64,000 nt of DNA from Bacteroidota bacterium (lineage in GTDB: Bacteria; Bacteroidota; Bacteroidia; 2-12-FULL-35-15). The DNA lies in NCBI GenBank assembly GCA_052389695.1, contig JBQTHQ010000057.1, positions 11,774 through 75,773 of the forward strand, read 5' to 3'. Numbering within the stretch: the stretch's first letter is position 1; the number at the start of each line of letters is the position of its first letter. This document shows, in pieces, positions 3,215 through 36,587 of this stretch. Position numbers and translations under genes: made by a program. The notes under the pieces were generated by a model. That model did no database searches, was not told the origin of the DNA, and was given only the letters and a program-made list of their open reading frames with translations.

Positions 3215-3570
3215 GCAAAAGTCCTTAAGAGCCGGAGAAAACTAAAGCCTTTAACAAGCTGAATTTTCTCTGCTCCTATAAGACCTGAAAAAACTAAAGT
3301 CCTTAAGGAGCTGAATTTTTAAAGTTCCTATACGACCGCAGAAAATTAAAAGCCCTATAAGAGCTGAATTTATAAACTTCTTTAAAAAGAGTTTTTTTCA
3401 AGCCCTTAAGAGCCGCAGAAAACTAAAGTCTTTAAAGAGCCGATGTTTTCAAGAGGTCTTATACAACCGGAGAAAATAAAAGTCCTATAAGAGCTGAATT
3501 TATAAACTTCTTTAAAAGAGAGTTTTTTCAAGCCCTTAAGAGCCACAAAAAAATGAAAGTCTTTAGGATT
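3215..3570. repeat. degenerate tandem repeat array (iteron-like) upstream of first gene of element
   Basis: Six or more units built on NAGAAAAYTAAAGYC + CTTAAGAGC(T/C)GAATTT at 52-77 bp spacing. A ~130-bp higher-order duplicate contains a 34-bp exact repeat at 3353-3386 and 3483-3516 (cctataagagctgaatttataaacttctttaaaa). Confidence 0.8.
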
Positions 3571-3609: not shown

Positions 3610-6600
3610 ATGACCAGGAAAAAACAGGAAACTTCCGGTAAAGGTGAAAGTGCATCTACCCACAGATGGGCAGATGAAATTATTGCTATTACTGAAAACG
3701 CCAAACAGAAAGGGATTGAAATTCGGTTTAATGCCGAGCCATCCCCACAACTTCAGCCCAAGCTAAGGGCAATGGGTTTCAGGCATAGTAAAATGAAAAC
3801 CATGTGGTACGGTGATAATACACCGGAAGCATGGGAATTTGCTGAAAAGGTTAAAACGACACTTCCCGTTTCAACCGATGGACCTGAACTTTTTTTGTCA
3901 CCTTCTGTGGAAGCTGTCCGAACCAATATTGAAAACAGGGAGTTCAGCTTTGTAATGATTACGCTCAAAGATGGGCAGGTTAAAAACTACATCATTTTTG
4001 AATCGTCAAAACCCAAAGCCGAAGTTATTGCCAGCAATTTTGCACACCAGGAATTTGGAGATAAGTTTCTCTCATTAGCAGCTCTGCCCAAAACACACAT
4101 CAAGGAGGCACGTACCCTGTTTGACGAAGGCAAAATCATTTTTCCGGAAGGGCAAAAAGTACCAACCCACAAAGGGAGTGTGATTAAGGGTTTGAAGCCG
4201 GTATCTGAACCGGTAACGGATGAAATTACAGAAACCGATCAGGACAAGCAACGGGAAACAGAGCGCTTGACACTTCAGAAATTTTACCAGTGGGCAACAC
4301 TCCAGCCCGACTTGTCATCAAAGCCAAGCAATGTAAACCGTGAAATTTTTGATAACTGGTTTAAGGAAAATTATCCCAACCTATCGGCAAAAGCTGTTGA
4401 AAGCATGTGGCAAAGCCATAGCCGGATTACGAAATCTTTAAACCGGTTTGAAAAACGTTCCACCGGAAAACCGCTGATGCAACCTTACAGCTCCATTTAC
4501 AAAAAGCTAATGCAGGTTATTCCTGATTTGATAAAACACATTGAGGAAGGAAAGGATAGTGGCAAATCTGTGAAGGATCCAAAAGGCGGCCTAATGGATT
4601 TGAATTTCGATTACCTGGGTAAAGACAAAAAGGGAAATTACCTTATCGCACTTTCGCATTACTTCGAGCAAAATGGAGATATGGTTGCCGATCCCGATAT
4701 GCAGATACGCATATTGCCTGACCTGGAAGCTGCCGAAGCCATGACCTTTCAGGATCAGTTCGGATTCCAGGAAGTTTATCCCGATAAAGGAGACGGAAAG
4801 GAGTACGTTGATTTGAAGCGCAAAAAAGACTTAAATCAGTTCCTAAGCCAATGGCTGACTAATATCATCAGGCAGGGACACAAGATTGATTTAACACAGG
4901 TAGAAAGCGAAACAGAGAACGATGAGAAATCAACCGGGACTGACCTTAGTTTCACAAAACCTGATTTTGAACGCCTGCACACGCCTGAAGAAGAAAAAGA
5001 AATCATTGAGCAATTCTTAGCGCAGGGATTTACAAGACCATTCAGCGCACAAGAAGCATTTGATAAAAACCTTCCGGTGATTGACCTGGAATTCCGCTAT
5101 GTGGAATCAATGGAGTATTTCAGGGATCACATTGAAAATCCACGTAAGGAGAAAATAAAAGAATTGCGGGAAGAACTGAAAGACCTGAAAGGTGAAAAGG
5201 GCGTGAATGAAAAACGAAACTCCCTGAAGGAACAGATAGAGCAGCTGGAAGCAGAAATGACCCTTGCTGAAAAATTAGTTCAGGACGAAAGCCTCATCTT
5301 TCAGGATGATCTCTTTGCAATCATTCTTCAAAATGGTAAACAAAGGGGTTATGCAAAGGAAATTGCAGAAGACATCAGCAGTTTCCAGGACTATGTTGTT
5401 ACCAACATTCTTGATAACCGTGCCATTGAAAGCTACCATAAGGATCCCGTTCAAATAGTGGTGAACGAACTCATTGACGAATATTTCAACTCAAAAGAAG
5501 AAATCAATGCGCCTGAAATGAAATCAGAGCAATCCGATACTTCAAAAAGTGTTGCCACAGACCTTAAATCGGGAGATACTTTTGTTCCAAATGTTTTAGT
5601 TCCTTCAGGTACAACAGAGCCGTTCCATTCACAACTATTTCAGATTTATGATATGACGGAAGTGATTAAAAACAACTTCCCTCACCTGCTGAAAATCTCA
5701 AATGAGAATCTTGGCGATTCCTCACCGATAGCCATGTTTGAACTCATGCAATTTGGACATCCAAGCGAGTATGGAGTTGATGTGAACAGAATAGACTTGC
5801 TTAAAGAATGGGAAAAACAAGGTAAAAGCATCTTTAAAGAGATTGGTTTTCCAACAGATAACAGTTATCCCTATGTAAATCTTCATCTCGGTTATGAAAG
5901 CATAGAACCGCTAAGGGAAATGTTATTTGATAACAACAAGGAGGGAGACGAATGGTGGGCCATTGCCGAACACGCCCGTCCAATTGCAGATGTAAAGAAA
6001 GCTCTGAAAATCATTGACCAAATGATTGAGAAAGAGAAACGGGAAATGAAAACGTATCTCAATCCAAAAACCGGAAAACCCAAATTGGAATACAAGCATT
6101 TGGTGAGGGATGCCGAATTAACCATTGAGAATCTCGAAGACAGCAAAGAAGTTTTACAACACTATTTGAACAATCCGCCTGAAGAAGAAAAAGAGAATAC
6201 CGAAGAAACTTCACAGGATCCGCTGGCTAACGAAAGCGGTGTTTACACTGCTAAAACTGCCGGAGAGAATTTCGAGGAAATCGAAATACCTATGCCTAAA
6301 GGAGCGCAGTTTGAAGCCCGTATTTCCATTGTTAAAACTTCTAATGGTGATTACAAAGTCGGACTTCATGCAGCCAAGAAATTCGGAGATCACGAAGGAT
6401 TAGCATTTCCTGCAAGTGTGGATGGGCAATCCTATTCCACCAAAACGGAAGCATTGAAGTATGGATTAAACTTTCTTGAATTAAGACTTGAAGTTTTATT
6501 AACTGCAAAAGATACTATCCTGGGCAATGAAGAAAAGAAAAAGAAGCAACTGAACATGGCGCTCGATGCGCTCAAAAAGTTTGCGGATGAACATGATATT

Positions 6601-8193
6601 ACGCCTGAAAAGGATCCCGGAAAAACTTCTGATAAAATTCTTTTAAAGGAAATCCACTTAGTTACTTATCCAACCAATAAACGTTTCCGCTCTGAAACAA
6701 GAGTTGTAAAAACCTGGAAAGAAGCGGACGAATATTTCAGGAAGAAAAAGTGGATTGATGAAACAGTCCAATTGAAAGTTATTTGGCAGGACTTTGAAAC
6801 CTTTGAACGCAGGCTGGAATACTCTCATGCACAATTATACAGGGGTAAGAATCCAATCAGCGAATTTGTGTACCAAGCAAATCTTACTATCAGCAAAATG
6901 AAACCTCTCAAAGGTTCACCAACGAAAGAGACGGATGTTAAGAAAGCTCAAAAGTTGATTGCGGGATATTCATTTTCAGACAACGATGTACTGAATATAT
7001 CCGCAGGCATTATCAAAGGTTTGGAAGGTACTTACTGGAAAAAAGAAGACAACAAATATCCACAGGATAAAGCAGTAATCAATGGGATGGAGTTTGACCA
7101 GGCCAGGCTTCGTGAAGCCATCCAAACAAAATTGGAAAAACTACCAATTGAAACGCTGGAGGAAATTGTGCAGGAGCTATCTCTAAAATTCAAGGAGCGA
7201 AGACCGCTTGCTACTTACGAAAAAAGCCTTGTAACCATAGGAAAGACCGGAGACAAAAGAAAAGCAACTTTGATTGCAAGTTACGTGGATGATTTAATTG
7301 TGGACAATGATCTTACCGATAAGACAAACAGTCCCGTGATGACTTTCCTGGTTGAACTGCTTTTCAGTAATGAACAAAAGTTAATTGATTTTCCAATGGA
7401 AGAAACCAGTAAAAAAGAAAATAAAAAAAACTCTTTGAGACAAAAGCAAAGCCAGTATGAACTCAATAAGGAAATTGAAGCACTCATTGAAAAAAAAGAC
7501 AAAGAAGGCAGTTCGTTCAATGAAGAAGAAAAAAATTACATCCGGCAATATACCGGCTCCGGTGGCCTGATAAAAGAAGGCGCTACCGGACGTGGAGTAT
7601 TGTATGAATATTATACCCCCGATGAAGTTGTAAAAAAAATGTGGGGCTTGGCATACAAATATGGATATGATGGAGGTTCAATATTAGAGCCATCGGTAGG
7701 CACAGGCAACTTTTTAAAATATGCACCTAAAGATGCTATCGTTTTCGGATTTGAAACCAACCATTTTTCTGCACGGATAGCGCAAATACTTTTCCCCAAT
7801 GCACATATCCATGAGAAAGCATTTGAAAGTTTATTCTTTGCGGGCAACATTCACCTGAAAGATGATTTTGACCACCCGCTTTACAACCTTGTTATCGGCA
7901 ATCCTCCCTACGGAGATTTTACCGGAAAGTATGCAGGCATGGGAGAAAAGCAGTGGACGGGTGCAACTGAGTATGACCAGTATTTTATCCTGCGTGGACT
8001 GGATTTATTGAAGAAAGGTGGCCTATTGGTCTTTGTTATACCCAGCAGCTTTCTCTCCTACAATGTAAAATCGGCAAAGGTCAAGGAAAAAATTGCTTCA
8101 AAGATTGACTTTATGGATGCGTACCGCTTACCTATCAGAACCTTTGAAACAACGGATATAGGAACAGACATTCTCTTACTGAGAAAAAAATAA
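3610..8193 (+). CDS. giant protein with C-terminal gamma-class N6-adenine DNA methyltransferase domain (DarB-like N-terminal half analogue)
   Basis: 1527 aa; C-terminal motif X/I (YYTPDEVVKKMW ... ILEPSVGTGNFL) followed by motif IV (IGNPPYGDF) and FVIPSSFL. The ~1200-aa N-terminus has no recognisable motifs. Confidence 0.8.
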   Translation: MTRKKQETSGKGESASTHRWADEIIAITENAKQKGIEIRFNAEPSPQLQPKLRAMGFRHSKMKTMWYGDNTPEAWEFAEKVKTTLPVSTDGPELFLSPSVEAVRTNIENREFSFVMITLKDGQVKNYIIFESSKPKAEVIASNFAHQEFGDKFLSLAALPKTHIKEARTLFDEGKIIFPEGQKVPTHKGSVIKGLKPVSEPVTDEITETDQDKQRETERLTLQKFYQWATLQPDLSSKPSNVNREIFDNWFKENYPNLSAKAVESMWQSHSRITKSLNRFEKRSTGKPLMQPYSSIYKKLMQVIPDLIKHIEEGKDSGKSVKDPKGGLMDLNFDYLGKDKKGNYLIALSHYFEQNGDMVADPDMQIRILPDLEAAEAMTFQDQFGFQEVYPDKGDGKEYVDLKRKKDLNQFLSQWLTNIIRQGHKIDLTQVESETENDEKSTGTDLSFTKPDFERLHTPEEEKEIIEQFLAQGFTRPFSAQEAFDKNLPVIDLEFRYVESMEYFRDHIENPRKEKIKELREELKDLKGEKGVNEKRNSLKEQIEQLEAEMTLAEKLVQDESLIFQDDLFAIILQNGKQRGYAKEIAEDISSFQDYVVTNILDNRAIESYHKDPVQIVVNELIDEYFNSKEEINAPEMKSEQSDTSKSVATDLKSGDTFVPNVLVPSGTTEPFHSQLFQIYDMTEVIKNNFPHLLKISNENLGDSSPIAMFELMQFGHPSEYGVDVNRIDLLKEWEKQGKSIFKEIGFPTDNSYPYVNLHLGYESIEPLREMLFDNNKEGDEWWAIAEHARPIADVKKALKIIDQMIEKEKREMKTYLNPKTGKPKLEYKHLVRDAELTIENLEDSKEVLQHYLNNPPEEEKENTEETSQDPLANESGVYTAKTAGENFEEIEIPMPKGAQFEARISIVKTSNGDYKVGLHAAKKFGDHEGLAFPASVDGQSYSTKTEALKYGLNFLELRLEVLLTAKDTILGNEEKKKKQLNMALDALKKFADEHDITPEKDPGKTSDKILLKEIHLVTYPTNKRFRSETRVVKTWKEADEYFRKKKWIDETVQLKVIWQDFETFERRLEYSHAQLYRGKNPISEFVYQANLTISKMKPLKGSPTKETDVKKAQKLIAGYSFSDNDVLNISAGIIKGLEGTYWKKEDNKYPQDKAVINGMEFDQARLREAIQTKLEKLPIETLEEIVQELSLKFKERRPLATYEKSLVTIGKTGDKRKATLIASYVDDLIVDNDLTDKTNSPVMTFLVELLFSNEQKLIDFPMEETSKKENKKNSLRQKQSQYELNKEIEALIEKKDKEGSSFNEEEKNYIRQYTGSGGLIKEGATGRGVLYEYYTPDEVVKKMWGLAYKYGYDGGSILEPSVGTGNFLKYAPKDAIVFGFETNHFSARIAQILFPNAHIHEKAFESLFFAGNIHLKDDFDHPLYNLVIGNPPYGDFTGKYAGMGEKQWTGATEYDQYFILRGLDLLKKGGLLVFVIPSSFLSYNVKSAKVKEKIASKIDFMDAYRLPIRTFETTDIGTDILLLRKK

Positions 8194-8216
8194 AATGATA
8201 AAACAGAGAAACAGAT

Positions 8217-8519
8217 ATGATTTCAAATTACCTGGTGGGATCGGGCATCCTTTACAACAAAAACAAAACAGACATTAATTCAATCAACATGCAGGCAATG
8301 GCAAATGAGAATGACCAGATTAACGAATTAAAACAGCTTATCAATGGAGAATTGAAAGACTGTAATCGCTTCTTATGGCCGAAGGTGTGCGAAATGCAAA
8401 GCACAGATAAAGGAAGGGCAAAGCTGGAAGATATGATTATCCGGTATGTAGCCGAAGAAGGAATGCAGATAGGCTCTGCCATTGCACTTATTGAGCAGGA
8501 GCTTTCGCACATTCTTTAA
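8217..8519 (+). CDS. hypothetical small protein between methyltransferase and helicase genes
   Basis: 100-aa ORF, start uncertain (internal Met MQAMANEND). Confidence 0.3.
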   Translation: MISNYLVGSGILYNKNKTDINSINMQAMANENDQINELKQLINGELKDCNRFLWPKVCEMQSTDKGRAKLEDMIIRYVAEEGMQIGSAIALIEQELSHIL

Positions 8520-8521
8520 AC

Positions 8522-11500
8522 ATGGCACAAGGGTATAAAATGTTCCGAAAAATCGCACAGGAAGTCAACAGGAACTTGCGGGAACGGAAACAAAACTTAA
8601 AGAACATGAAAACAACCGATACCAAAGTCAGTACTGAAACGCTGAAAAAGTTTACCACATTTCTTTTCAGGCACAACACCATTGATGGATATATGCAGGA
8701 TGGGGAAATAAAACAATCCTTCGGACGGATGGGAAAGAAAGCATTTAAGGAGCTTGCTGCATATTTAGGATTAAAAGACTATGATGTTGCATTCAACCCG
8801 GCTGGCCCGGCAGTAAGCGGTGATCTGCGCCTGATGGGAATGTTTGCACCCGATAAAGGAATCTACATTTCCATGAATAAGGATGGAATGAAGTCCGGTA
8901 TTTTATACCGCAGCATCAAACACATGAAAGACTTTTCGGGAGGTAACAACAATTACTTTCCTGAAGGCGACCTCAATCATCCCGATGAAATCAAGGAAAA
9001 AGTGTACAGGCTGTTAAAGCTGGATCAACCCATCACTGCAACCACATTATCAGAACTTAACCGGCTTCCAAATGTATCAGTTGTGAAGATTGCAGATGGT
9101 GGAAAAGAAAATATGGAAGAAAAAGAATTTATCGGGGACAATGACATTACAGATGCCCAATACGCATGGGAAATGCGCCAACTGGAATACCAGCAAATAA
9201 AAGCAATACAAAAAACCGGAAGGCCCAATGTGCTGGATGCCAAAGATGGAGACGAACATGAAAAAATTGTTGAGTGGGCATTGAAGCAAGGCAAGCCTGT
9301 TCCGGCTGATGTATTTGAAGATTATCCCTGGTTAAAGGAAATACAAAAACAAAAGTCCCCAAGTGAAAAAGCTACCAGCACACTTGGACTGTTAACCGGA
9401 GACGAATGGTTCAAACAACACCCGGAGAAAATATTGGGAGAGCAATTCCAAACAACCGACCGTTTCGGAAAACCCGTAACCAAAGTAAAAGGAACAATGG
9501 ATAACATCATTCAGGGTATAGATGTGCCATCGGTAGATGTTCCTGAAGAAACAACCGAAGCCCTGCAAACAGAAATTAAAGAACCCTTACAGCAATTGAT
9601 GAATGATCCTGTAAAGAAAAATAACATCGAGCGTGTTATCAACGAAACTAAAAAAGCACATGCGGATAAGGCAATCAGAAAGCTCAACGGAGAAAAGGAC
9701 AAATACGAAGACGGATGCCCGGAAGAATATTTTTGTTTCGATGATGTAATGCAGCAATACAACAAAGGCATTACAGATGAAGAAATAAAAGCCTGGATAT
9801 GGTACAAGCGGAAAACCGGTGGTTACAACGATGAAAAGGTAATCCTGAATGCAAAGAACGGCTGGTCAAAATATGTTGTTCCATTAGGCCAGGCACATAC
9901 CCACTTAGCAGGATGGCTTAAAACAGGCATCGTTTGCTATTACAAAGGTGATTATATGCCGAGCATTCTATACTATGCCGAGAACATTTACGAACGGCAG
10001 AGTATGCTCCTGAAGGAAAAAGATGCCATTATAAAAGAGTTTGGTAAAGAGCAATACGACCGTCAGTGGGAAGGATTGGAAAATGTAAAACCACCTAAAC
10101 TTACCCTGAATGATCCGAATACTGCTAACCGCTTATTCATCAAACCCGATTCTGCTTTTGCAAAAGAAATCCGTATCAGCCAGCTCGCTGATGAAACAAA
10201 ATTTAATAACTATTCCAAAGAGAAGGGACATTATGTTGAAGGTGCTGTATCATTGGTAGAAGCCTTTAAAACGTGGTTAAGAAATTTACCCAAAGATGAT
10301 TTTAAAAAGTCAACTGACTGGAACATTATCCAGTATTACCTTGATGCGGGAACACCTTCCCGCCATTATGATAAAGAGGAAAAATTGCGTTTAAAGCAAA
10401 ATGCGAAAATGGAAGGCGACCAGTTCTTTGTGCGCTTTCTTGCAGAAGCCTTAACCCGTGAAGACCAGGTACGCATTGAGCAGTTATGGAACTCCAAATA
10501 CAATGGCTATGTAGAAATCAATTATTTCAAAGTACCCGTTGCTTTTACCTGCTCCAGTACATTTAAAAACAAACCCCTATTTATCCGTCCTGCACAGCGG
10601 GAAGGCATTGGCTTTATCAGCGTACACGGTTCGGGGTGCGTAGCCTATGATGTGGGCCTTGGTAAAACTATGACAGCAATTCTTTCGCTTGCACAGGCAT
10701 TGGAAAGCGGACAATGCAAACGTCCTTTCATTGTTGTACCCAATCAAACCTACAAGAACTGGTTAAGTGAATTGCGTGGTGTAGTTGATAAAGGAAAAGT
10801 ATTGCTTTCAGGATTATTGCCACAATACCAGGTGATAGACCTCTACAACCTGGGGACAGAATTTGTTGACCAGCTACGGGATGATAAAGGAAACATCAAA
10901 CCTGTACCGGAGTTCAGTATTTCTGTGTTAACCTATGAAGGATTTAACCGGCTTGGATTTAATGACGAAACCTGGGACACCATTGGCAGCGAGCTGTTCG
11001 ATATACTCAACCAGGGTACAGAAGAAAAACGGGATATGGTAAAGCTCCAGGAAAAAATCAACGAAATGATGGGAAAAGGCATCAAGGGCGGTTCGGTTGA
11101 CATTGAGAATTTAGGTTTTGATTACATGGTGGTGGATGAAGCTCATGCCATGAAAAAATCCTTTACGCAGGTAAAAGGACAAATAAAAGGAGAAACAGGT
11201 GCAAGAGAAAAAGCATCCTACGAAATCCGTTCAGGATCACCGTCCATGACTGCCCTTCGTGGCTTTATGGTTAGCCAGTATATTTTACGCAATAACCAAA
11301 TGCGGAATGTATTACTGCTGACGGCTACACCGTTCACCAACAGTCCGCTTGAAATCTATTCCATACTGGCGCTCATTGGTTACCAGCAGTTAGAAAAATG
11401 GGGCATTAAAAACATCAAAGAGTTTTTTGATACGTTCATCAAAACCAGTATGGAGCTGGTGATTAACGCCAAGCTGAAACCCGAACGCAGAGAGATTGTA

Positions 11501-19693: not shown

Positions 19694-20296
19694 TCATTTG
19701 ATTACACTTGTTAATATTCTATTTATCCATGCAGGAGCAAGTTTGGCATCATGCAAAATGTTTTTCTTTTTTTCCTTTCTCAAAATTTCTAACATTTTTT
19801 TTAGGCTATCATCTTCTACTTTATCCTGGCCAATGCTTTTAAGAGCTTGAATTACAAGACTGCTTATTTCTCCTTCAGCTAATAAATTTTTAGGACTTGT
19901 TTTCTTAAACGTAATTGTTCTTTTCCCAATTTTGATACTTCGTGCAGCTCCGTCCGTAAGAAAAACTACTTTCAATGGCACTTGAGTTGATAACCCCAAT
20001 TTATTTAGAGCTTGGATACCGGTCGGAATTATTCTTGCCCTATCTCTTTTTGCAATAGCTACTGCTACCTGTTCAGCGGAAGGATATAATATTCCTAAAT
20101 CTTTATCCTTTTTAGGATATAGATAAATACCATGAGCTATTCGGACAAGCATTCCTTTCTTCTCTAATCTGAATAGAGCTTTTTTCACACTTTCAGGATT
20201 GCCAAAATCTAAAAAGTCATCTACAAATAGAATACTTCCTTTTAGCAGCTTCTTTAATGCTTCAGCGACTTTATGTTCTACAATTGGTCTTTCCAT
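19694..20296 (-). CDS. AbiEi family antitoxin / transcriptional regulator
   Basis: Directly upstream of and 1 bp from the AbiEii gene. Segment ALFRLEKKGMLVRIAHGIYLYP fits the AbiEi N-terminal winged-helix pattern. The ORF extends to 20470, but the Met at 20296 gives the typical ~200 aa. Confidence 0.65.
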   Translation of the reverse strand: MERPIVEHKVAEALKKLLKGSILFVDDFLDFGNPESVKKALFRLEKKGMLVRIAHGIYLYPKKDKDLGILYPSAEQVAVAIAKRDRARIIPTGIQALNKLGLSTQVPLKVVFLTDGAARSIKIGKRTITFKKTSPKNLLAEGEISSLVIQALKSIGQDKVEDDSLKKMLEILRKEKKKNILHDAKLAPAWINRILTSVIK

Positions 20297-20586
20297 AAGT
20301 ACAATTTCGTCCCAAATATAGTAAATATTTGGGACGGGAAACATTGAGAGCCAATAATTTTTCCAAATAGGTTTAAATCCCCCGGTTCTTTCTTCAAAAA
20401 GTTGTATGCAGCAAACTTTCCTAACTGCCTTATTCTCCTGCATCCACTTGTAAAAGTTGTGGTAAAACACAAGTAACCACCTTTTAAACCACTGTCATTA
20501 CTCAGAATTTTGACCTCGCAAGGTTTAAATACCAATTCACAAAAAGGCAAACGATTAAAATCAAAAACCATTTAAAAATCATTCAC

Positions 20587-20829: not shown

Positions 20830-21702
20830 ATGAATAAATATAACGAAGAAATTCGCAAGTATGAAAAAGAGGCCGAAGACCGTTACGATGATTATGATGA
20901 CGATAATTACGATGACGACAACTTCGACACCGGCCTGGAAGGGCAAGATTCGTATGATGAAGATTCATACGAAGAAGTAGAATACATTGGAGAGGACAGC
21001 TACGATGATGATTCATACGATAACTACGCTGCCAACTCAATCGGAAAAATCAATCCGAACGACAGAACCCTAACGATCACTATTACCAATACCTCCGGTG
21101 CAGATGCGGAAGCAATTGTATTTGGCGGTAACGAAAACGCAGCGCAACCCGCAGGCGTTCTTGTAGTGGTACAGGAAAGTTCGCACAGCGAAGTGAGAGA
21201 GGAAAGTAAAGCTAATCCTTTCAAAATCCAGGGAATGAAAATGTCCGTGTCTGATCCTTTGCAATTTGACAACGTTTGGAAAATCCTGCGTAAGTCAGCT
21301 GCCGGATCATTCAATTCACACCCGTACCAGCCACGTAATGCTACCTCGCCTCAAAACACCAATCCTAACCTGATTGATGACAGTGCGTTCGAGATGGACG
21401 TAACTGGCCAGGACAGCATCCGCTTTTTCCAAAAGGCTGGCGTAAAAACTACGCTGACCTTCACAATTAAAGCCCGTGTTGATATGGGTAATGTGTTGGC
21501 TGGACAAAATGTGGCAGAAGTATCTACCGCACCACGTCCAACAGGATTGCCTCAAATTGACTTGGCTAAACAGGCTCCTAAACCTGTATTTGGAGTAAAA
21601 CCGAAAATGAAAAAAATGGTTCGCAAAGTAGTTCGCAGACCAATTGGCGGTGGAAGACCAAGACCAGGTGGACCAAAAAGGCTGTTAAGAAAACGCAGAT
21701 AA
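20830..21702 (+). CDS. hypothetical structural-protein candidate (D/Y-rich N-terminus, Arg-rich C-terminal tail)
   Basis: 290 aa. N-terminal DSYDxD/DDYDDD repeats, a central beta-rich region, and a C-terminus RRPIGGGRPRPGGPKRLLRKRR typical of nucleic-acid-binding tails. Followed by a strong terminator. Confidence 0.5.
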   Translation: MNKYNEEIRKYEKEAEDRYDDYDDDNYDDDNFDTGLEGQDSYDEDSYEEVEYIGEDSYDDDSYDNYAANSIGKINPNDRTLTITITNTSGADAEAIVFGGNENAAQPAGVLVVVQESSHSEVREESKANPFKIQGMKMSVSDPLQFDNVWKILRKSAAGSFNSHPYQPRNATSPQNTNPNLIDDSAFEMDVTGQDSIRFFQKAGVKTTLTFTIKARVDMGNVLAGQNVAEVSTAPRPTGLPQIDLAKQAPKPVFGVKPKMKKMVRKVVRRPIGGGRPRPGGPKRLLRKRR

Positions 21703-22336: not shown

Positions 22337-22954
22337 ATGGTCAGAATAATTAACCAAGAGAAACCAAAAGAGCCGGAAGCAAAGCTAACGGAAAAATCAA
22401 AAGCCCTGCTTCAGATTATCGCAATCATTATTGCCGATAAACCTAAAGCCGTTCAGGAACTTTTGGAAAGTTACAGCATTGAGTTTTCGGAGAAGCTGGA
22501 TGAAAAAGAGCTTACCGATAAACTGCTTTCAGCCATTGGAGAATGTGATAAACACTTCAACAATGATTTGACACGGATTATCCTGGACTGCACTCTTGAA
22601 AATGATTATGACGGCTTTGATTTTAAATCTCTTTTCAAAAAAGGAGAAGATTCCGGTGGAGAAGAAAGTGGATCCGGTGGCGGTGGTGGATTATGGGCAG
22701 GCATCGGAAGCGCAATTGGAGGAATTGCAGGATCAATTGGTAGCGGAAGAAGGGCAAGAGAAGAAGCAACCACTAAAACTCTCCAGGGCATATACGCATA
22801 CAAGGCGCAGCTCGCATCGAACGAACAAAACAAAGGTAAAAACAAGAAGCAAATGATAATTGCACTGTTTGTAATTCTTGGATTAGTCCTTCTTGCTGCT
22901 GCCTATTTCAGTAATAAGAAACAACCACAACAAGTACCAGCATTAAAAGCCTAA
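22337..22954 (+). CDS. tail-anchored Gly-rich protein (paralog family member)
   Basis: 205 aa with a Gly-rich segment (GGEESGSGGGGGLWAGIGSAIGGIAGSIGSG) and C-terminal TM MIIALFVILGLVLLAAAYF. Confidence 0.5.
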   Translation: MVRIINQEKPKEPEAKLTEKSKALLQIIAIIIADKPKAVQELLESYSIEFSEKLDEKELTDKLLSAIGECDKHFNNDLTRIILDCTLENDYDGFDFKSLFKKGEDSGGEESGSGGGGGLWAGIGSAIGGIAGSIGSGRRAREEATTKTLQGIYAYKAQLASNEQNKGKNKKQMIIALFVILGLVLLAAAYFSNKKQPQQVPALKA

Positions 22955-22958
22955 TACC

Positions 22959-23402
22959 ATGATACAACAAAACAATTACGGTCTCAACGGTATCTCTAAC
23001 TACTATGGTTATGACGATGACGGCTACGATCATCTCTTTAAAAGATTCAGAGAGAAACGAGCAGAAAAAAAAGAAGAAAGACAGGAAAAAAAAGCCGATA
23101 GAAAACAACGCAAAGAAGACAGGCGTTCCGAAAGGCAAGAGAAGCGTGAACTGAATAGCGAAAAAAAACGCCTGAAAAACGAATTGAAACAAACGCAAAT
23201 TGAGGAGAAGAAAGCCTCGCTCAATATGCTCAATCAACAAGGCCAAATGCCACCTCCGGGACCAGCTCCGGCAAGTGGTGGTGACAATACCATGATTATA
23301 GTTGCGGTTGTTGGCGTTTTAGTCCTTGCTGGTGCAGGGTATATGATGATGAATAAAAAACAAACTCCGGTAATGCAACCGGTCTATGCGAAAGCAGCTT
23401 AA
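22959..23402 (+). CDS. tail-anchored protein with D/Y-rich N-terminus and charged single-helix region (paralog)
   Basis: N-terminal YYGYDDDGYDHLFKRF, an ER/K-rich stretch, a Pro/Gly linker, and C-terminal TM IIVAVVGVLVLAGAGYMMM. Confidence 0.55.
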   Translation: MIQQNNYGLNGISNYYGYDDDGYDHLFKRFREKRAEKKEERQEKKADRKQRKEDRRSERQEKRELNSEKKRLKNELKQTQIEEKKASLNMLNQQGQMPPPGPAPASGGDNTMIIVAVVGVLVLAGAGYMMMNKKQTPVMQPVYAKAA

Positions 23403-23426
23403 TACTAACCATTAAAAACAATAGCC

Positions 23427-24053
23427 ATGATTATCGGAGAAACCTTTAACGAAAACAGCTACTACGGATACGAAGAAGAAAATTACGACTATCTGTTCAA
23501 GCGAAAATCAAAAGAAGAACGTCAGCAAAAAAAAGAAGAAAGAAAGCAGAACCGGACTGAAAAAAAACAGCTAAGACAGGACAAGCGAACTGAAAAAAAA
23601 TTGCAGAAACAAGATCCTGCATCGGGAGGAAAACGCAGACTTCCTATCCTCGGAAATTTTGGACTGTTCGATAAGAACAAAAACAAAAAAAATGCAGGCA
23701 CTTCCGGTGGTGTTGCCAATTCACCGGCAAAAAAAGAACCAGGGGATACTTCTGAACCTTCAACAATTGAAGAAAAAAGGATAGCTATGGCAAGTGCAGG
23801 TGCAGCAGCTACTCAGGATAAATCCGAAGGAAGTAAAACTTCAGGAAATGAATCCGATACAGAAGGATCATCGGTAGCAAAATTAGAAAGCAAAGAGCTG
23901 GATAAAAACGGCAACCCTAAAAAAGAAGCCGGTTTCGGGCCAATGTTCGGTTTTGCCATGCTTGGTATTACCGTCCTGGTTGTCGGAGCGGTACTCTACG
24001 GAGTTAACAAAAAATCCAATCCTTCTCCGCAATCAATAAAAGTTGCAGCATAA
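23427..24053 (+). CDS. tail-anchored protein with D/Y-rich N-terminus and charged single-helix region (paralog)
   Basis: N-terminal YYGYEEENYDYLFKRK, ER/K-rich stretch, C-terminal TM FGFAMLGITVLVVGAVLYG. Clear paralog of 22959-23402. Confidence 0.55.
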   Translation: MIIGETFNENSYYGYEEENYDYLFKRKSKEERQQKKEERKQNRTEKKQLRQDKRTEKKLQKQDPASGGKRRLPILGNFGLFDKNKNKKNAGTSGGVANSPAKKEPGDTSEPSTIEEKRIAMASAGAAATQDKSEGSKTSGNESDTEGSSVAKLESKELDKNGNPKKEAGFGPMFGFAMLGITVLVVGAVLYGVNKKSNPSPQSIKVAA

Positions 24054-24068
24054 TTAAAATTATTTAAC

Positions 24069-24296
24069 ATGGACATTTTAGCAGAACCTATTGAACAGGA
24101 AGTAAACGTTGACGGTGCAACCCCACAGGGGGCGCTATTTATTTCCGTGAAAAATACAGGAGCCAACATCGCAACTTTTAACGGAGTTTCCCTGCCACCT
24201 GGTGAGGCCAAGAGCTATTCTTTTGTTGGTAAAGGTTATAAGGCATTGCCTTATGTAGTCAACGGTTCTACTCTCAAATTACTTTACATCCTTTAA
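24069..24296 (+). CDS. small hypothetical protein
   Basis: 75-aa ORF, beta-rich composition. Confidence 0.4.
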   Translation: MDILAEPIEQEVNVDGATPQGALFISVKNTGANIATFNGVSLPPGEAKSYSFVGKGYKALPYVVNGSTLKLLYIL

Positions 24297-24308
24297 AATT
24301 TAGAAGCA

Positions 24309-24815
24309 ATGATAAGAGCCGAAAAAGCACAACGCATCATGCAGCTTTACGAAGATGATTATGATAACTTCCTCGATAAGCTGAAAGCCAAACGCAAGGC
24401 GAAAAAAGAAGCAGCAGCACAGAAAAAAGCAGAAGCCGATAAAGCCGACAAAACCGTTTCGGAAGCTGAAGCATACAAGAAAAAACATCTTGGTCAAAAA
24501 GCAAAAGACCTCCTGGATAAAGCCGGAGGAATTGAAGGTGCTACCAGTACCATCAAAAACGTGATGGGATATTTCAAGGATAATACTCCTTCGGATTATG
24601 ACATCAACATGGGCGGTACAGGTGAAGATCCCAAACCTGAAAAGAAAATCTTTGGGCTTCCCCCGGTGGCAGTTTATGCTGGAGGCGCAGTTCTGCTTTT
24701 GGCAGGACTTTATGGCTTATCCCGCTTCCTGAAAAATAAAAACGCACAGGTACAATCCCAAACACAAATACCCGCAGCACCTTCGGCAGAACCAGTTTTA
24801 CAAGCAGCAGCATAA
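24309..24815 (+). CDS. tail-anchored charged protein (paralog family member)
   Basis: 168 aa, K/A/E-rich N-terminus, C-terminal TM VAVYAGGAVLLLAGLYGL, Ala-rich C-terminal end as in the siblings. Confidence 0.5.
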   Translation: MIRAEKAQRIMQLYEDDYDNFLDKLKAKRKAKKEAAAQKKAEADKADKTVSEAEAYKKKHLGQKAKDLLDKAGGIEGATSTIKNVMGYFKDNTPSDYDINMGGTGEDPKPEKKIFGLPPVAVYAGGAVLLLAGLYGLSRFLKNKNAQVQSQTQIPAAPSAEPVLQAAA

Positions 24816-24819
24816 TATC

Positions 24820-25617
24820 ATGGTCATTCCAATTCCATCACAACAACAGAAGTTCAAAGTCAAGATAGGCATTCGTGCTTTTGAGCCTTGTGCATTGGCC
24901 GTTCGTTGCTTTGATGCAACTAAACCAAATACAGATTATATCCGAAGGAGAGTTCCTTTTAAGAAAGATGTATTTAAAGGGAAGAATCCAGGGTATAGGG
25001 AATTTACTCTGCCCTTTCCACTTTCTCCCGATCAGCTAATGGTAGAAATGCAGGATAAAACCTATGGTGATGATACGCATTTCAAGGTTGAAAAATTTGA
25101 ACTGGAAAAAATCAAACCAAGAGCTGTTTGGGCTGAACCTCAAATGCACCGTTTTATTGACTTTGCACAGGATTTTGCAAGCAAAGCAGGTTATCTGCCA
25201 ACTGGAGTTTACGACAGCAAGGATGGAGATTTCTTAATCCAATACCTGCCTGTTATTGAAGATGAGCAGGGAGATCCATTAGTTACGCCTGCACGAACCA
25301 ACCGTAAGTCAGGGAGAATGCAAATATCCCAAGCGGCATTTGCTGGCTATACAATCCCGGTAAGGCTTGTGGTAATGTTCCATGAGCGCTTCCATTTTCA
25401 GATACCTACAAGACTTGAAAAACCAGCCGATCTGACAGGAATACGCCTGTACCTGGACTTGGGATTTCCAAGACTGGAAGCGATTTATGCGACTACCAAG
25501 ATTTTTAGCGCACATCCTGAATCAGTAGGACAAGGCCACTTAACAAGAGTAGAGGACATAACGCAATTCATTGATTGGTATTCACAAAAAAACAATTTGA
25601 AATTAAATGAAGCGTAG
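24820..25617 (+). CDS. hypothetical protein
   Basis: 265-aa ORF, no recognisable motifs. Confidence 0.45.
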   Translation: MVIPIPSQQQKFKVKIGIRAFEPCALAVRCFDATKPNTDYIRRRVPFKKDVFKGKNPGYREFTLPFPLSPDQLMVEMQDKTYGDDTHFKVEKFELEKIKPRAVWAEPQMHRFIDFAQDFASKAGYLPTGVYDSKDGDFLIQYLPVIEDEQGDPLVTPARTNRKSGRMQISQAAFAGYTIPVRLVVMFHERFHFQIPTRLEKPADLTGIRLYLDLGFPRLEAIYATTKIFSAHPESVGQGHLTRVEDITQFIDWYSQKNNLKLNEA

Positions 25618-27547
25618 CGGAAACATAGGAATTAATTTTTTAGCGCAAAGCATCAAGAAGATTTTATCTGATAAGAAAAAATCTAATGAGGAGAACTTTG
25701 TCGAAAAAACCTATGAAGGTACTGACGATAATTTCTTTGAGGCTACCAATACTAACCTTCGTGTTAAACTTGGACTGGATAAGAAAAGTGAGAGCTATGA
25801 AAAAGATTTAAAGCGTTTCGGTACAAAAATAAAACTCATTGATGTTGCGGATGATGCTATTCCAAACAAACGCATTAAAGAAGTTTTACCACTTAAAAAA
25901 CCAGCCAAATCTGCCCAGGAAAAGTTTGAGGAAAAGTATGAAAAGGATTTAAAACGCTTCGGTACTCGTCAAGGTATTATCCGGGTATCGAACGATGATC
26001 CGGCAAGAAGGAAAAAACCAAAACCTTTTCCAACCAATTTTAGCAAGGCAGCTTACGACAGCATGATGAGCAAATGGAAAACCCGTGAGGTTACTCCATT
26101 TTCCGTTAATCCATTTTCTGACATCTACCGTGAGTTCCCTAAAGCACAGGTAACAATACAAAACAAATCCACTGAAGAAAAAGAAGTGGTGTTATGGGGA
26201 GCAAATCAGAACATCAGTATAAGCGCACCTGGTCCCGGAGATGTTCAGGATCATACCATCGTTGCACAGATCAGTATTCCATCAGGTGTTCACCCGCAGG
26301 GTATTGTTGTTAATCCAGCCAACCAGCTTGTATATGTTGCCAACCAGTTAAGTGGTTCTGTAACCGTCCTGGATGGAAACAATCAGGTTGTAAAAGTGAT
26401 ACAGCTACAACCTACATTTCCCGGATTTGCTTCTCCCGTTGCACTCACTGTAAACTCCAAAAGCTCCAGCAGCAAGTATGGATATGTTTATGTAGTATGC
26501 TCGGTTGCCAATGTACTTGCGGTAATTGATTTATCGCTGAACGTAATTGACTATGTACCCGTTGGAACCCGGCCAGTTGCAGCAGCTTTCAATCCGGTAA
26601 ACCTTCGTGTATATGTGGCTAACCTGGTGAGTGATAACCTGAGTGTTATTGATGCTGAAGCATTAACCGAAATACCAGGCTCACCACTTCCAACAGGACA
26701 GGATCCTATTGGTGTTGGAGTTGATCCCGTAAACGGAGACATCTATGTTGCCAATTCGCTGGCCAACAGCATTACTGTTTATGATAGCACCAACACGCTG
26801 GCAACCACAATTCCGGCAGTTGGGCAATACCCTGTATCAATCACTTATAACGCTGCTAACGACACCATGTATGCCGTAGCAACCAACAACAATTTTGTCT
26901 ATCAGATCGAAAGGGCAACACATACCATTGTTGGAATAATAGAGGTTGGAAGCAAACCCTACAATGCCTTCTATGATTCATATAACGGTTACCTGTATGT
27001 TCAGAACCGGGCTGATAATACGTTCACCATTATTCGCCCGGACAATAGCAAAGTGGATGGGTTAAGTTTCGGAGAACAAAATATTGGTGGAGCTTTCAAC
27101 AGCTTCAACAAAACAATTTACGTTTCCGATACCAGCAATAATACCATAACCGCAATTGGTTATCTGCCTGTAAGCAGTACCCTTTCTATTAATTCCGATT
27201 ATGCTGAAATGCGTGAGGATCTGCAAAGCAATCCTGCGGTAATACAACACGCAAAATTTGTGGTAACCGGAACAGAAAGATTAAACAGCTTCCGTGTAAA
27301 CAAGTTCACGCCAACTGGTAGTATCAAAAGCAAGCCTATCTCTTTTGAGTTATACGCAAGCCCTCAAAGCATATTGAATGTTGCTGAAGTAACAGAACTG
27401 GCCGGAACTGTCATTGACGGTAAAATGAACTGGAGGTTCAAGCTCCCTGGACTGCATACCGTGAGCATCCTGGTTTGGTATCGCCAATTTGAAGTACGAG
27501 AAATTTTAAGCCCGACAAACAATAAATCAATAATTAAAAATCAATAG
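25607..27547 (+). CDS. YVTN-family beta-propeller repeat protein (receptor-binding/structural candidate)
   Basis: At least six ~40-aa repeats of the YV(A/V)N ... S(V/I)(T/S)V(I/L/Y)D type (YVANQLSGSVTVLD, VYVANLVSDNLSVID, IYVANSLANSITVYD ...). N-terminal duplicated motif YEKDLKRFGT(K/R). Confidence 0.65.
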   Translation: MKRSGNIGINFLAQSIKKILSDKKKSNEENFVEKTYEGTDDNFFEATNTNLRVKLGLDKKSESYEKDLKRFGTKIKLIDVADDAIPNKRIKEVLPLKKPAKSAQEKFEEKYEKDLKRFGTRQGIIRVSNDDPARRKKPKPFPTNFSKAAYDSMMSKWKTREVTPFSVNPFSDIYREFPKAQVTIQNKSTEEKEVVLWGANQNISISAPGPGDVQDHTIVAQISIPSGVHPQGIVVNPANQLVYVANQLSGSVTVLDGNNQVVKVIQLQPTFPGFASPVALTVNSKSSSSKYGYVYVVCSVANVLAVIDLSLNVIDYVPVGTRPVAAAFNPVNLRVYVANLVSDNLSVIDAEALTEIPGSPLPTGQDPIGVGVDPVNGDIYVANSLANSITVYDSTNTLATTIPAVGQYPVSITYNAANDTMYAVATNNNFVYQIERATHTIVGIIEVGSKPYNAFYDSYNGYLYVQNRADNTFTIIRPDNSKVDGLSFGEQNIGGAFNSFNKTIYVSDTSNNTITAIGYLPVSSTLSINSDYAEMREDLQSNPAVIQHAKFVVTGTERLNSFRVNKFTPTGSIKSKPISFELYASPQSILNVAEVTELAGTVIDGKMNWRFKLPGLHTVSILVWYRQFEVREILSPTNNKSIIKNQ

Positions 27548-27549: not shown

Positions 27550-28128
27550 ATGAACAACAAATTAAACTACTTAGTGCTTCATTGCACCGCAACACCTGAA
27601 GGAAGACCAGTAACAAAAGATGACATCATTCGCTGGCACACAAACCCTATTCACCTTGGAGGTCGTGGATGGAACCGTCCCGGATATTCTGACCTTGTAG
27701 AGCTTGATGGAGACTTGGTAAGTATCATTCCTTTTAACACAGACGACTTTGTTGACCAGTGGGAAATCAGCAACGGTGTAGTGGGATTAAACGGCAATGC
27801 CCGTCATATCGTGTATGCAGGTGGAATGGACACGGAAAACAAAAAGCCAAAAGATACCCGCACCAAAGAACAATTGGCAACGCTTGAAGTGTATGTAAAA
27901 TACACCATCAAACGCCATCCGAAAATTTTAGTGTTAGGACATAACGAAGCTCCTAATGCAAATGGCAAAGCCTGCCCAAGTTTCAATGTAGGTGAATGGT
28001 TACGTTCCATCGGTGTAGCTGAAGCAAACATTTATAATAAACAAGTTGCGGAAGAAAAAAAGGAAGCAGTAGTAGCTACTACTACCATTGAAGAAATAAG
28101 CAATACCACAACTGAAGCTGAAGCATGA
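27550..28128 (+). CDS. N-acetylmuramoyl-L-alanine amidase (Amidase_2/PGRP, T7-lysozyme-like endolysin)
   Basis: LVLHCTATPEG and HNEAPNANGKACPSF motifs, 192 aa. Confidence 0.8.
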   Translation: MNNKLNYLVLHCTATPEGRPVTKDDIIRWHTNPIHLGGRGWNRPGYSDLVELDGDLVSIIPFNTDDFVDQWEISNGVVGLNGNARHIVYAGGMDTENKKPKDTRTKEQLATLEVYVKYTIKRHPKILVLGHNEAPNANGKACPSFNVGEWLRSIGVAEANIYNKQVAEEKKEAVVATTTIEEISNTTTEAEA

Positions 28129-28337: not shown

Positions 28338-28772
28338 ATGGCAACAGTAATACAGGACATCATTATACCGGAGAAAAGTTCCGAATGTTCGGAATGGATC
28401 AGCTATTTCAAGAAGCTGGAAGAAAAGTTCGGTGCGGAGAATGCCAAAACAATTTGGTTAAAGACCTGGCAGGTGAACGGCTCAACAGCTTCCTGTACCA
28501 CTCGCCCGGACTTCAATGCCTTTTTCAAAAAGCATGACATAGATGTTACCAACATGGCCACAGCAGCCGTTGCATCGGCAGCGGACTTGGGAGGCAGTAT
28601 CATGGGTCTTGGTAAAGGCATTACCAAAGTGCTGACCTACGGAGTACCGATTGTAATGACTGCCGTGATTGCAGCTATACTTTATGCCATTGTCAAAGTA
28701 GCTAAAAATACAACTGCATCCGATGTTGCGATGCTAACACCGCAAGGGAGGGCGGCTTCTTTACTCAAATGA
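28338..28772 (+). CDS. membrane protein (C-terminal TM)
   Basis: 144 aa, TM VPIVMTAVIAAILYAIV. Confidence 0.4.
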   Translation: MATVIQDIIIPEKSSECSEWISYFKKLEEKFGAENAKTIWLKTWQVNGSTASCTTRPDFNAFFKKHDIDVTNMATAAVASAADLGGSIMGLGKGITKVLTYGVPIVMTAVIAAILYAIVKVAKNTTASDVAMLTPQGRAASLLK

Positions 28773-29308
28773 AAGCAACCGCAATCAGAATAGCACAGAA
28801 CAATACAAAGGTTCTCATTATCGGAGGCGTTGTAACCGTTGCCGGAGTGTGGATCACTGTTGCTGTGTTTAACCACAGAAGAAAAACACGGGATCAGAAA
28901 GCAGTGGCATTCTTCAGCGAGCTGCAAAGAGATATTGCACCGGATTCAGTAGGACTGGTTGAAAGCAATGCCTTTGACATTCGCTATTGGGAGAATATAG
29001 GGAAGAAAATAAAGAAGCCAATGTATATGCTCACGGTTGCAAGCGCAAAATCCTACGCTAAGGATATCCGGGATTCATGGGGCGTGTTCGATGACGATGA
29101 AGACAAAATAAAAAGCGTATTCCGTGCCTTGAAAGACCAGGTTCAGGTTTCCCAAGTTGCCTCTCAATACTACAACGATCCAAAGGGAGGTAAGATTAAT
29201 CTGATTGATGACCTGAAAAGCAGGTTGGGCAAAGAAGAAGTCGGAGAAGTGCTTGAAATCGTGAAGAAGCTACCACAATACCGTTTGGCAGAACCACCAA
29301 AAAAATAA
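28769..29308 (+). CDS. membrane protein (N-terminal TM)
   Basis: 179 aa, TM VLIIGGVVTVAGVWITVAVF, overlaps previous stop. Confidence 0.4.
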   Translation: MKATAIRIAQNNTKVLIIGGVVTVAGVWITVAVFNHRRKTRDQKAVAFFSELQRDIAPDSVGLVESNAFDIRYWENIGKKIKKPMYMLTVASAKSYAKDIRDSWGVFDDDEDKIKSVFRALKDQVQVSQVASQYYNDPKGGKINLIDDLKSRLGKEEVGEVLEIVKKLPQYRLAEPPKK

Positions 29309-29311
29309 ACA

Positions 29312-29524
29312 ATGGCAGAGACAACACAAGATAAAGAACAGAAAAAAGGATTACTGAAAAAATACCTCGATAACACTTTTGGGGATGAAGGCTTACGCAC
29401 CGATGTAAAAATAACCCTCACCAACGAGACGATTTTCAAGTTCGTTGCTGCGGTGGTTGTGGCTACCGGGTTAAGCACCGCTACTTACTATGTTATAAAA
29501 TCAATGTTCACTGGCAAAGCCTGA
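29312..29524 (+). CDS. small C-terminal-TM protein
   Basis: 70 aa, TM FVAAVVVATGLSTATYYVI. Confidence 0.35.
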   Translation: MAETTQDKEQKKGLLKKYLDNTFGDEGLRTDVKITLTNETIFKFVAAVVVATGLSTATYYVIKSMFTGKA

Positions 29525-29544
29525 CTAAGAAAGGAAACATCAAA

Positions 29545-29904: not shown

Positions 29905-29928
29905 TTACTAACAAACAAAAATCAAAAC

Positions 29929-33013: not shown

Positions 33014-33025
33014 TCCTAAAGACGT

Positions 33026-36507: not shown

Positions 36508-36557
36508 GCCCTCAAATTTACAGCAAATATAGTAATTTGACCGGTAGAATTATTTAT

Positions 36558-36587
36558 TTAGACTAATCTAAATATTTTTATTAGATT
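36558..36587. promoter_or_regulatory. candidate metalloregulator operator in divergent intergenic region
   Basis: Imperfect palindrome TTAGACTAATCTAA (36558-36571) plus TTAGATT half-site at 36581-36587, upstream of the lipoprotein operon and divergent from the DtxR-family gene. Confidence 0.3.

Follow-up and report, generated by a model that had tools for sequence, protein, structure and literature searches.

A conserved three-gene form of the DarB-like methyltransferase–SNF2 helicase dyad in a mobile element of Bacteroidota

The methylase–helicase dyad of polyvalent proteins is defined by a four-helix LPD36 domain with a GxG(G/A/S) motif, by TP and NPP(Y/F) motifs, and by a SWI2/SNF2 partner (Iyer, Burroughs, Anand, de Souza and Aravind, 2017, PMC5512222). 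Its archetype, DarB of phage P1, is a single polypeptide of ~2255 amino acids (aa) with the methyltransferase near its N-terminus. DarB acts in cis to protect the DNA of P1 from type I restriction and is a component of the phage head (PMC5512222, PMC9024508), into which it is packaged through a 30-aa N-terminal signal that targets it to the capsid (PMC9024508). Three adjacent genes related to this system lie on the + strand of a 64,000-nucleotide (nt) stretch of Bacteroidota DNA (contig JBQTHQ010000057.1, assembly GCA_052389695.1, positions 11,774 to 75,773), the whole of which is referred to here as the window. Gene 1 (3610-8193) encodes a protein of 1527 aa, gene 2 (8217-8519) one of 100 aa, and gene 3 (8522-13267) one of 1581 aa. 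With a probability of roughly 0.6, this trio represents a split form of the phage and plasmid methyltransferase/SNF2-translocase dyad that, by analogy with P1 DarB, would shield the DNA of its element from restriction.

All three open reading frames (ORFs) are intact, with exactly the positions and sizes listed in the first-pass annotation, an earlier reading of the same DNA, including the small ORF that separates the two giants. The protein encoded by gene 1 consists of an N-terminal module, a variable middle and a C-terminal methyltransferase module, all on the + strand like every other domain of the trio. The last of these (7438-8190, ending ...DILLLRKK) combines an LPD36-like helical domain with a gamma-class N6-adenine methyltransferase fold. 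The methyltransferase domain (aa 1333-1526) matches the Pfam families N6_Mtase (1.6e-11) and Eco57I (3.7e-11) and carries YYTP (aa 1334-1337, TP at 1336-37), EPSVGTGNF (motif I, 1360-1368) and NPPY (1431-1434). Directly N-terminal to it, YTGSGG at aa 1314-1319 supplies the GxGU motif of LPD36. In an alignment of 32 sequences, Y1314, G1316, G1318 and G1319 are nearly invariant, and the N and both P residues of NPPY are invariant. A profile search of the protein against the PDB matched the methyltransferase part alone, namely to EcoR124 HsdM, EcoKI M and M.TaqI, while the PHROG alignments begin at aa 1263-1284. The protein encoded by gene 3 contains a complete SNF2/SWI2 ATPase core (10382-12481) with motifs I, Ia, II, III, V and VI, detected by Pfam as SNF2-rel_dom (9e-13, aa 703-884) and Helicase_C (1.1e-10, aa 1172-1275); its motifs include DVGLGKT (710-716), DEAH (872-875), TATPF (934-938) and QLEGRIWRFGN (1266-1276). 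These matches and motifs bear out the two enzymatic assignments of the first-pass annotation, a C-terminal gamma-class N6-adenine methyltransferase and an SNF2-type helicase. LPD36, the TP and NPP(Y/F) motifs and the SNF2 partner are all found in the trio, which fits the published dyad motif by motif.

The first-pass annotation had also called the pair a split DarB-like protein, and this proposal stands, given consecutive matches to PHROG families and contiguous alignment to fused proteins. Proteins 1 and 3 match consecutive profile regions of the same families, phrog_1685, phrog_11801 and phrog_10089. In phrog_1685 the methyltransferase covers profile positions 39-280 (9.6e-68) and the helicase aligns from ~958 onward (1.6e-85); phrog_10089, 'DarB-like antirestriction', is matched at 1.7e-31 by protein 1 and at 4.8e-33 by protein 3. 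Within one annotated ORF of Leptospira phage LE1, aa 1279-1526 of protein 1 align to 14606-15346 and aa 296-1353 of protein 3 to 15392-18427. Among annotated proteins, this 'putative methylase' ORF (BX571876.1, 14.6-18.4 kb) and the 'SNF2-related protein' of the Treponema succinifaciens plasmid NC_015386.1 are the nearest to the trio. The LE1 ORF is colinear with genes 1 and 3, with 35% identity in the methyltransferase and 28% over 1058 aa in the helicase part, and the Treponema methyltransferase is 42.6% identical to that of protein 1. Both relatives are fused, and neither has the N-domain/DUF6908 module, the small protein or the N-terminal domain of the helicase protein.

Comparison with fused proteins also locates the break. 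In the fused metagenomic protein P0070, the methyltransferase is 44% identical to that of protein 1, both ending ...DIL(L/I)(L/M)RKK, and is followed at once by 'EWFKNHPEKILGE..RFGK', the counterpart of aa 274-317 of the helicase protein; its helicase core is 32% identical to gene 3 over 841 columns. The same 'HPE..LGE...RFG' segment stands 3' of the methyltransferase in two further fused subfamilies. In fused proteins this 'post-methyltransferase' segment starts within ~15-25 residues of the methyltransferase fold, whereas in the trio it lies on gene 3 (9380-10381, aa 287-620), beginning EWFKQHPEKILGE...RFGK. Protein 1 stops at the last strand of the catalytic fold, with no target-recognition domain after it. 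Because LE1, P0070 and the two additional fused subfamilies continue at this point into the helicase-protein segment, the alignments place the split at the exact end of the methyltransferase catalytic fold. Compared with the fused forms, the trio has an insertion here, made up of a stop codon, the 100-aa gene and the ~290 residues that open the helicase protein.

DarB itself and the other members of PHROG 10089 (P1-like phage D6, PEp14, SopranoGao) belong to the same clade of LPD36 plus EcoKI/TaqI-like gamma N6-adenine methyltransferases, are likewise coupled to an SNF2 motor, and are likewise encoded by mobile elements. The D6 homologue, annotated 'defense against restriction', likewise aligns contiguously with proteins 1 and 3; its methyltransferase is 34.8% identical to that of protein 1, and the helicase parts of DarB-like proteins show 21-24% identity to gene 3 over ~700 aa. 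Unlike DarB, the trio consists of three polypeptides, and its methyltransferase is C-terminal, behind ~1270 aa of unrelated domains. Among the proteins screened, no homologues of the P1 helpers DarA, Hdf, DdrA, DdrB and Ulx were seen, and, judged by the hallmarks searched, the element carrying the trio is not a tailed phage. The methyltransferase occurs in ~1900 plasmid records and 118 phage records, and the features listed under the top plasmid matches are all annotated as SNF2- or helicase-related.

The three-gene layout extends well beyond the window. All 20 loci that cover the trio region, all from Bacteroidota and some of them duplicates, share the same order: N-domain, DUF6908 and methyltransferase on the first gene; the small ORF; and an optional helicase N-domain, the post-methyltransferase segment and the SNF2 core on the third. 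The three ORFs encode 971-1929 aa, 73-111 aa and 1283-2133 aa, separated in most loci by gaps of 1-39 nt, and the arrangement persists down to ~34% identity in the N-domain and ~60% in the methyltransferase. A protein search returned ~69 clusters with the DUF6908 plus methyltransferase architecture and without an SNF2 domain, again all from Bacteroidota. The complete N-terminal module was likewise confined to this phylum in a scan of species-representative genomes. Its carriers are metagenome-assembled genomes (MAGs) of Flavobacteriaceae, Flavobacteriales, Chitinophagales, Bacteroidia and Cyclobacteriaceae, as well as the cultured Formosa sp. A9. In the latter (L025, NZ_CP195158.1, 3,422,086-3,443,489), a serine recombinase, a winged helix-turn-helix (wHTH) protein and a glycosyltransferase are accompanied by a trio of 1367, 73 and 1421 aa.

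Three abutting ORFs in three different reading frames could also be read as the remains of a decayed fused gene, its stop codon and frame changes being disruptions and its ORFs pseudogene fragments. Such an origin is hardly credible, as the same layout recurs in 20 loci, the catalytic motifs are invariant and ~390 conserved residues at the junction have no counterpart in the fused forms. Ratios of non-synonymous to synonymous substitution (dN/dS), calculated segment by segment against L003 by the Nei-Gojobori method, lie between 0.04 and 0.15 throughout, the small ORF and the N-terminal extension included: 0.07-0.15 across gene 1 (0.15 in the middle region), 0.15 in gene 2 and 0.037 in the SNF2 core. 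These conservation and selection data exclude the pseudogene reading. As dN/dS is 0.04-0.15 everywhere and the three ORFs are kept in 20/20 loci, the split is a selected one; judged on these sequences, it is of ancient origin, occurs throughout a Bacteroidota clade and is maintained by purifying selection. The tight abutment, with the start codon of gene 3 only 2 nt past the stop of gene 2, suggests that genes 1-3 form one operon with translational coupling and fixed stoichiometry.

Gene 2 is as constant a feature of this form as the two giants. Its orthologue is found in 20/20 loci (73-111 aa), the identity between distant members, as in the comparison with the L002 orthologue, being 50% (E 7e-30), and C49, W54, C58 and H98 are invariant in the alignment of orthologues. 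The protein has no match in Pfam, PHROG, PADLOC, NCBIfam or the PDB and no counterpart in the fused homologues; it is a candidate adaptor or assembly factor. The helicase-protein N-terminal domain (8603-9046, aa 28-175) is likewise without counterpart in fused proteins. This domain is clade-specific and optional, being present in 13 of the 20 loci and missing in 7. A homologue search with aa 1-640 of the helicase protein returned 5 fragments only, and an AlphaFold2 (AF2) model of this region, built on a 6-sequence alignment, is unusable, with a predicted local distance difference test score (pLDDT) of 41. At the opposite end, the helical, charged C-terminal region (12482-13264) is conserved with the fused homologues.

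Since protein 1 ends without a recognition domain and the segment that normally follows is found on protein 3, the three products are predicted to reassemble into one machine, in which the small protein and/or the helicase N-domain would be the glue replacing the lost covalent link. The SNF2 motor would track along the element's double-stranded DNA carrying the methyltransferase, which, with no recognition domain of its own, would methylate adenines. This methylation would protect the element's DNA from host restriction upon entry into a new cell. More speculatively, the strictly N-terminal domain of protein 1 might target delivery with the DNA, as the capsid-targeting signal does for DarB. 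Both the anti-restriction function and delivery with the DNA are inferred by analogy.

The N-terminal extension of the methyltransferase protein exceeds 1000 aa and is largely unannotated, its only family match being DUF6908/DUF1249 at aa 319-424 (PF21849, 1.9e-19; PF06853, 8.6e-9). Extensions of >1000 aa had been announced for both giants. This is correct for the methyltransferase protein, whereas that of the helicase protein measures ~620 aa; both are real and largely unannotated. Outside the methyltransferase, aa 1-440 are the best-conserved part of protein 1. Their AF2 model (pLDDT 75) is good at the domain level, with the block at aa 21-180 reaching pLDDT 80-90, and resolves three units: an alpha/beta domain (aa ~20-180), a helical linker (aa 210-285) and a beta-meander with flanking helices that corresponds to DUF6908/DUF1249 (aa ~290-425, 4477-4884). 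The first of these, the strictly N-terminal domain (3667-4149), opens with a small beta-beta-alpha-beta-beta unit, 'IEIRFNAEPSPQLQPKLRAMGFRHSKMKTMWY'. A Foldseek search of the model against the PDB and BFVD found nothing at E < 0.001, the sole local matches being high-probability ones to uncharacterised phage proteins of 50-65 aa. The variable middle region (4930-7419, aa 441-1270) has no family or PDB match in Pfam and PDB profile searches. Its modules are repeated or lost among relatives, in which gene 1 ranges from 971 to 1929 aa.

An exhaustive hidden Markov model search with the N-terminal module returned 2023 proteins at E <= 1e-3. Among representatives, the first domain always stands at the extreme N-terminus of its host protein (250-1600 aa), and two host proteins that were checked both end in the same methyltransferase as protein 1. 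The fused P0070 has a weakly similar N-terminus, not significant alone. DUF6908 is found either stand-alone (~135-145 aa) or within giants of 2300-4450 aa, one of which has an SNF2/ResIII helicase. Stand-alone genes in Undibacterium and Dechloromonas adjoin a serine recombinase, a nuclease, an origin-binding-type helicase and a DNA methylase. Based on these host-protein contexts and gene neighbourhoods, the strictly N-terminal domain and DUF6908 are modular domains of mobile elements, and the modular, multi-domain N-terminal region of the trio agrees with the polyvalent-protein concept (PMC5512222). DUF6908 on its own is very widespread (L028-L085), occurring in Proteobacteria, Verrucomicrobia, Actinomycetes, Cyanobacteria, Saccharibacteria and MAG contigs of Promethearchaeota and Thermoplasmatota, with the archaeal loci being L073, L076 and L081. 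In the two cases checked, its surroundings are mobile-element neighbourhoods.

An adenine methyltransferase next to an SF2/SNF2 helicase gene is also a trait of DISARM and BREX, and the first-pass annotation had offered a DISARM-like pair (DrmMI plus DrmD) as an alternative. The trio would then be defence cargo, whether DISARM-like, BREX-like or a new system resembling restriction-modification (R-M), that shields the lysogen from other phages. In favour of this, the Helicase_C region has weak PADLOC and NCBIfam matches to DrmD, BrxHI/HII and DpdE, and the element has other defence cargo, AbiEii/AbiEi at 18691-20470 in the window and Fic or SLFN-AlbA_2 genes in relatives. However, these matches do not extend beyond the generic helicase C-domain, and their scores of 20-60 bits fall far short of the curated cut-offs (500-1100). 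The NCBIfam model DISARM_DrmD gives 59.7 bits (cut-off 610) and the PADLOC DrmD models <= 49 bits; for BREX, PADLOC finds the weak BrxHI/HII helicase-C matches only, and none to PglX, PglZ or BrxC. On the methyltransferase, PADLOC reports generic MTase_II, MTase_I and orphan-methyltransferase models only, with no match specific to DrmMI or PglX. Partner genes were searched for as well, and neither drmA, drmB (DUF1998) and drmC (PLD) nor pglZ and brxC are present among the window ORFs scanned or the Pfam-annotated neighbours in L001-L004. Finally, the trio is a conserved backbone in 20 loci whereas cargo varies, its best homologues are fused phage and plasmid proteins rather than members of chromosomal defence islands, and no nuclease domain is found in the trio or its conserved neighbours. 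With family-specific models failing and the partners missing, the defence reading is very unlikely.

The trio is also reminiscent of Type III (Mod/Res) and Type ISP R-M enzymes, which pair a translocating SF2 motor with an adenine methyltransferase, in separate subunits in Type III; this analogy has been drawn for the dyad before (PMC5512222). The trio differs in being homologous to the polyvalent clade and not to Mod/Res. Pfam, PADLOC and NCBIfam detect no nuclease and no target-recognition (TRD/HsdS) family in the three proteins, although unannotated regions could hide one, and the ResIII match in the helicase protein covers the helicase motif-I region only. Plasmid-borne single-strand methyltransferases of the M.EcoGIX type were considered as an analogue and dropped, the text of the paper on them showing no coupling to a helicase.

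A different role, in the DNA metabolism of the element itself, is suggested by the immediate surroundings of the trio. The helicase would act as a replication or recombination translocase, and the methyltransferase would set an epigenetic mark for regulation, packaging choice or a lysogeny switch. Replication-like genes lie nearby, including a DnaA_C-like HTH protein (15238-15696) and a P-loop ATPase with a weak Orc1/Cdc6 match, and the operon runs without a break into the downstream genes. Directly upstream, adjoining the 5' side of gene 1, is an iteron-like repeat array (3218-3565), in which a CC(T)TA(T)AAGA(G/C)-type core occurs ~11 times and the periods are 52 and 130 nt. The array recurs in L003, and its core motif lies 5' of the methyltransferase gene in L001 and L004 and was not detected upstream of that in L002; it is a possible operator or origin. 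Against such a role, the methyltransferase–SNF2 coupling is strict and very wide across unrelated replication types, which argues for a shared function independent of replication. In addition, SNF2 motors translocate on duplex DNA and do not unwind it (PMC5512222), and the one member that has been studied experimentally functions in anti-restriction (PMC5512222, PMC9024508). We consider a role in DNA metabolism rather unlikely.

Several observations also weigh against an anti-restriction dyad. The function is carried over from P1 DarB and not from members of this family. The fusion of methyltransferase and helicase, a defining and nearly universal trait of the dyad, is missing from the three ORFs and three frames of the trio, as from all 20 loci; a variant of the dyad without fusion, a 'conserved gene neighborhood', has been described (PMC5512222). 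Much of the trio's mass is left unexplained, as no fold or family could be recognised in the small protein or in the first 1270 aa of protein 1. In IMG/VR no relatives of the trio were found: the scan with the helicase protein returned none, and that with the N-module only isolated DUF6908 proteins. Lastly, the trio lies between a regulatory/replication-like block and an ATPase gene, and because of this position its members could be early genes, expressed after entry, instead of virion cargo.

The window does not contain the left part of the element. A conserved block on the same strand precedes the methyltransferase gene in 10 or more related loci and encodes two proteins, one with a wHTH (430-478 aa, 38-51% identical) and one resembling glycosyltransferases (386-415 aa, 40-44% identical); in Formosa sp. 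A9, the sole locus reaching far enough, a large serine recombinase of 540 aa lies further left. Between the glycosyltransferase and methyltransferase genes is a variable cargo slot of 0.75-6.3 kb, occupied according to locus by Fic/HTH genes, by an SLFN-AlbA_2 ATPase, or, in the window and its closest relatives, by DUF326 and outer-membrane protein genes. Position 104 of the window aligns to position 5835 of L001, which is within this slot. As the alignment places it, the window begins inside the cargo slot, and the upstream block lies beyond its 5' end. The two giants had been described as the first two genes of the element, occupying ~30% of it. The former is wrong in view of the genes that precede them, and the latter is not confirmed, the window starting inside the element; the boundary drawn at that time is an artefact of the window edge and a strand switch. 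The trio occupies the middle of an unusual prophage-like element of Flavobacteria-type bacteria. No tRNAs that could guide a search for att sites are found in the window.

Downstream of the trio, the element was surveyed over 13279-35339 (gene blocks 16609-17520, 20830-21702, 22337-24815, 25607-27547, 27550-28128, 28338-31284, 31310-34309 and 34809-35339). Conserved genes continue up to that of a 303-aa ATPase (16609-17520), which is better conserved than any other gene of the element and has 361 homologues; the 120 best listed are 55-95% identical. In 24 members, its Pfam matches are to Zot (22/24), HerA/DUF87 (6) and Pox_A32 (5). Past the ATPase lie a beta-rich 290-aa protein with a basic tail (20830-21702), about a dozen small proteins with C-terminal transmembrane helices, an NHL propeller protein, an Amidase_2 lysin, two fibre proteins (PHROG 972 at 1e-54 and PHROG 910 at 7.6e-47) and an M23 peptidase. 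The serine recombinase of Formosa sp. A9, the fibre proteins, the Amidase_2 and Peptidase_M23 lysins and the Zot/HerA/A32-like ATPase mark the element as mobile, in keeping with the dyads of PMC5512222, which are encoded by phages, plasmids or conjugative elements. Over 13-35 kb, no ORF is large enough for a portal or large terminase, and the ORFs screened match no capsid, type IV secretion system or relaxase family. Searches of 50,697 phage records by tblastn with the ATPase and the candidate structural proteins (20830-21702, 24069-24296, 24820-25617) found no match, and PDB profile searches with the ATPase and the capsid candidate found nothing. The host element looks like a prophage of a tailless, perhaps membrane-containing type.

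These features leave room for a bolder proposal, which is tentative and on balance doubtful: that the trio is the virion or transfer cargo of an undescribed lineage of temperate, tailless, probably membrane-containing Bacteroidota viruses. With a size of ~40-45 kb, such viruses would encode a serine integrase, an ATPase of the A32/Zot/HerA type, fibre-like spikes and many small membrane proteins, and would lack a portal, terminase and HK97 capsid. The N-terminal domain would be a particle-targeting module, and the split and the small adaptor would suit delivery of a ~350 kDa machine via a non-tail conduit.

The dyad, its link to DarB and its neighbouring-gene versions have already been published. 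New are the precise, conserved three-gene form with its dedicated small protein, the position of the methyltransferase as the last domain of a long modular protein, both N-terminal domains and the host element. No three-gene form with a dedicated small protein is described among the dyads of PMC5512222, whose host elements are of another type; no description of the strictly N-terminal domain was found there, DUF1249 is absent from its text, and DUF6908 was found in no paper of the literature searched. Few large anti-defence modules of phages and plasmids are as common as methyltransferase–SNF2 dyads. In the natural split, the catalytic methyltransferase is on one gene, the motor and its 'post-methyltransferase' segment on another and a small partner on a third, which provides ready constructs to ask which parts must associate for activity, and DUF6908 and the strictly N-terminal domain join the catalogue of modular 'polyvalent protein' domains. 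The element itself is a more interesting lead than the trio, as it may be a new kind of tailless prophage missed by current viral detection pipelines. Related elements occur in cultured strains with complete genomes, namely Formosa sp. A9, which has the trio, and Pseudotamlana carrageenivorans (P0283), which has the ATPase marker. Work on methylomes, induction and the proteomics of particles is therefore feasible.

Further features of the element and its surroundings merit mention. The two adjacent fibre genes (31310-33013 and 33026-34309) share a similar N-terminal ~120 aa and an 'ATQAEV.AG.DD...TP.KL' repeat and differ in their C-termini, which suggests alternative or paired receptor-binding proteins. 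Abortive-infection cargo is inserted in the element on the - strand (18691-20470), where an AbiEii toxin gene (1.4e-35) is paired with a DUF6088/AbiEi antitoxin gene (2.4e-84) and the G+C content falls to 0.34. Just before this insertion, a small second methyltransferase-like gene (17926-18469) with 'IITNPPFS' and weak EcoRI_methylase/MTS matches appears to be split between two overlapping frames (17926-18261 and 18113-18469), perhaps as a pseudogene with a frameshift. Metal-related genes are found on both sides of the phage-like block, at 751-2501 and 35848-51563. The former, in the cargo slot, encode a cysteine-rich DUF326 protein and a 446-aa outer-membrane-type protein, to which L001 adds DUF305. 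The latter include a di-haem oxidoreductase, HlyD, a P-type ATPase and a candidate DtxR-like regulator, read from its N-terminal sequence alone. At 42517-46923, a 1468-aa protein of unusual architecture fuses a full AcrB/CzcA-type resistance-nodulation-division pump (ACR_tran, 7.4e-287, aa 6-1034) to outer-membrane-factor OEP repeats at aa 1082-1256 and beyond.

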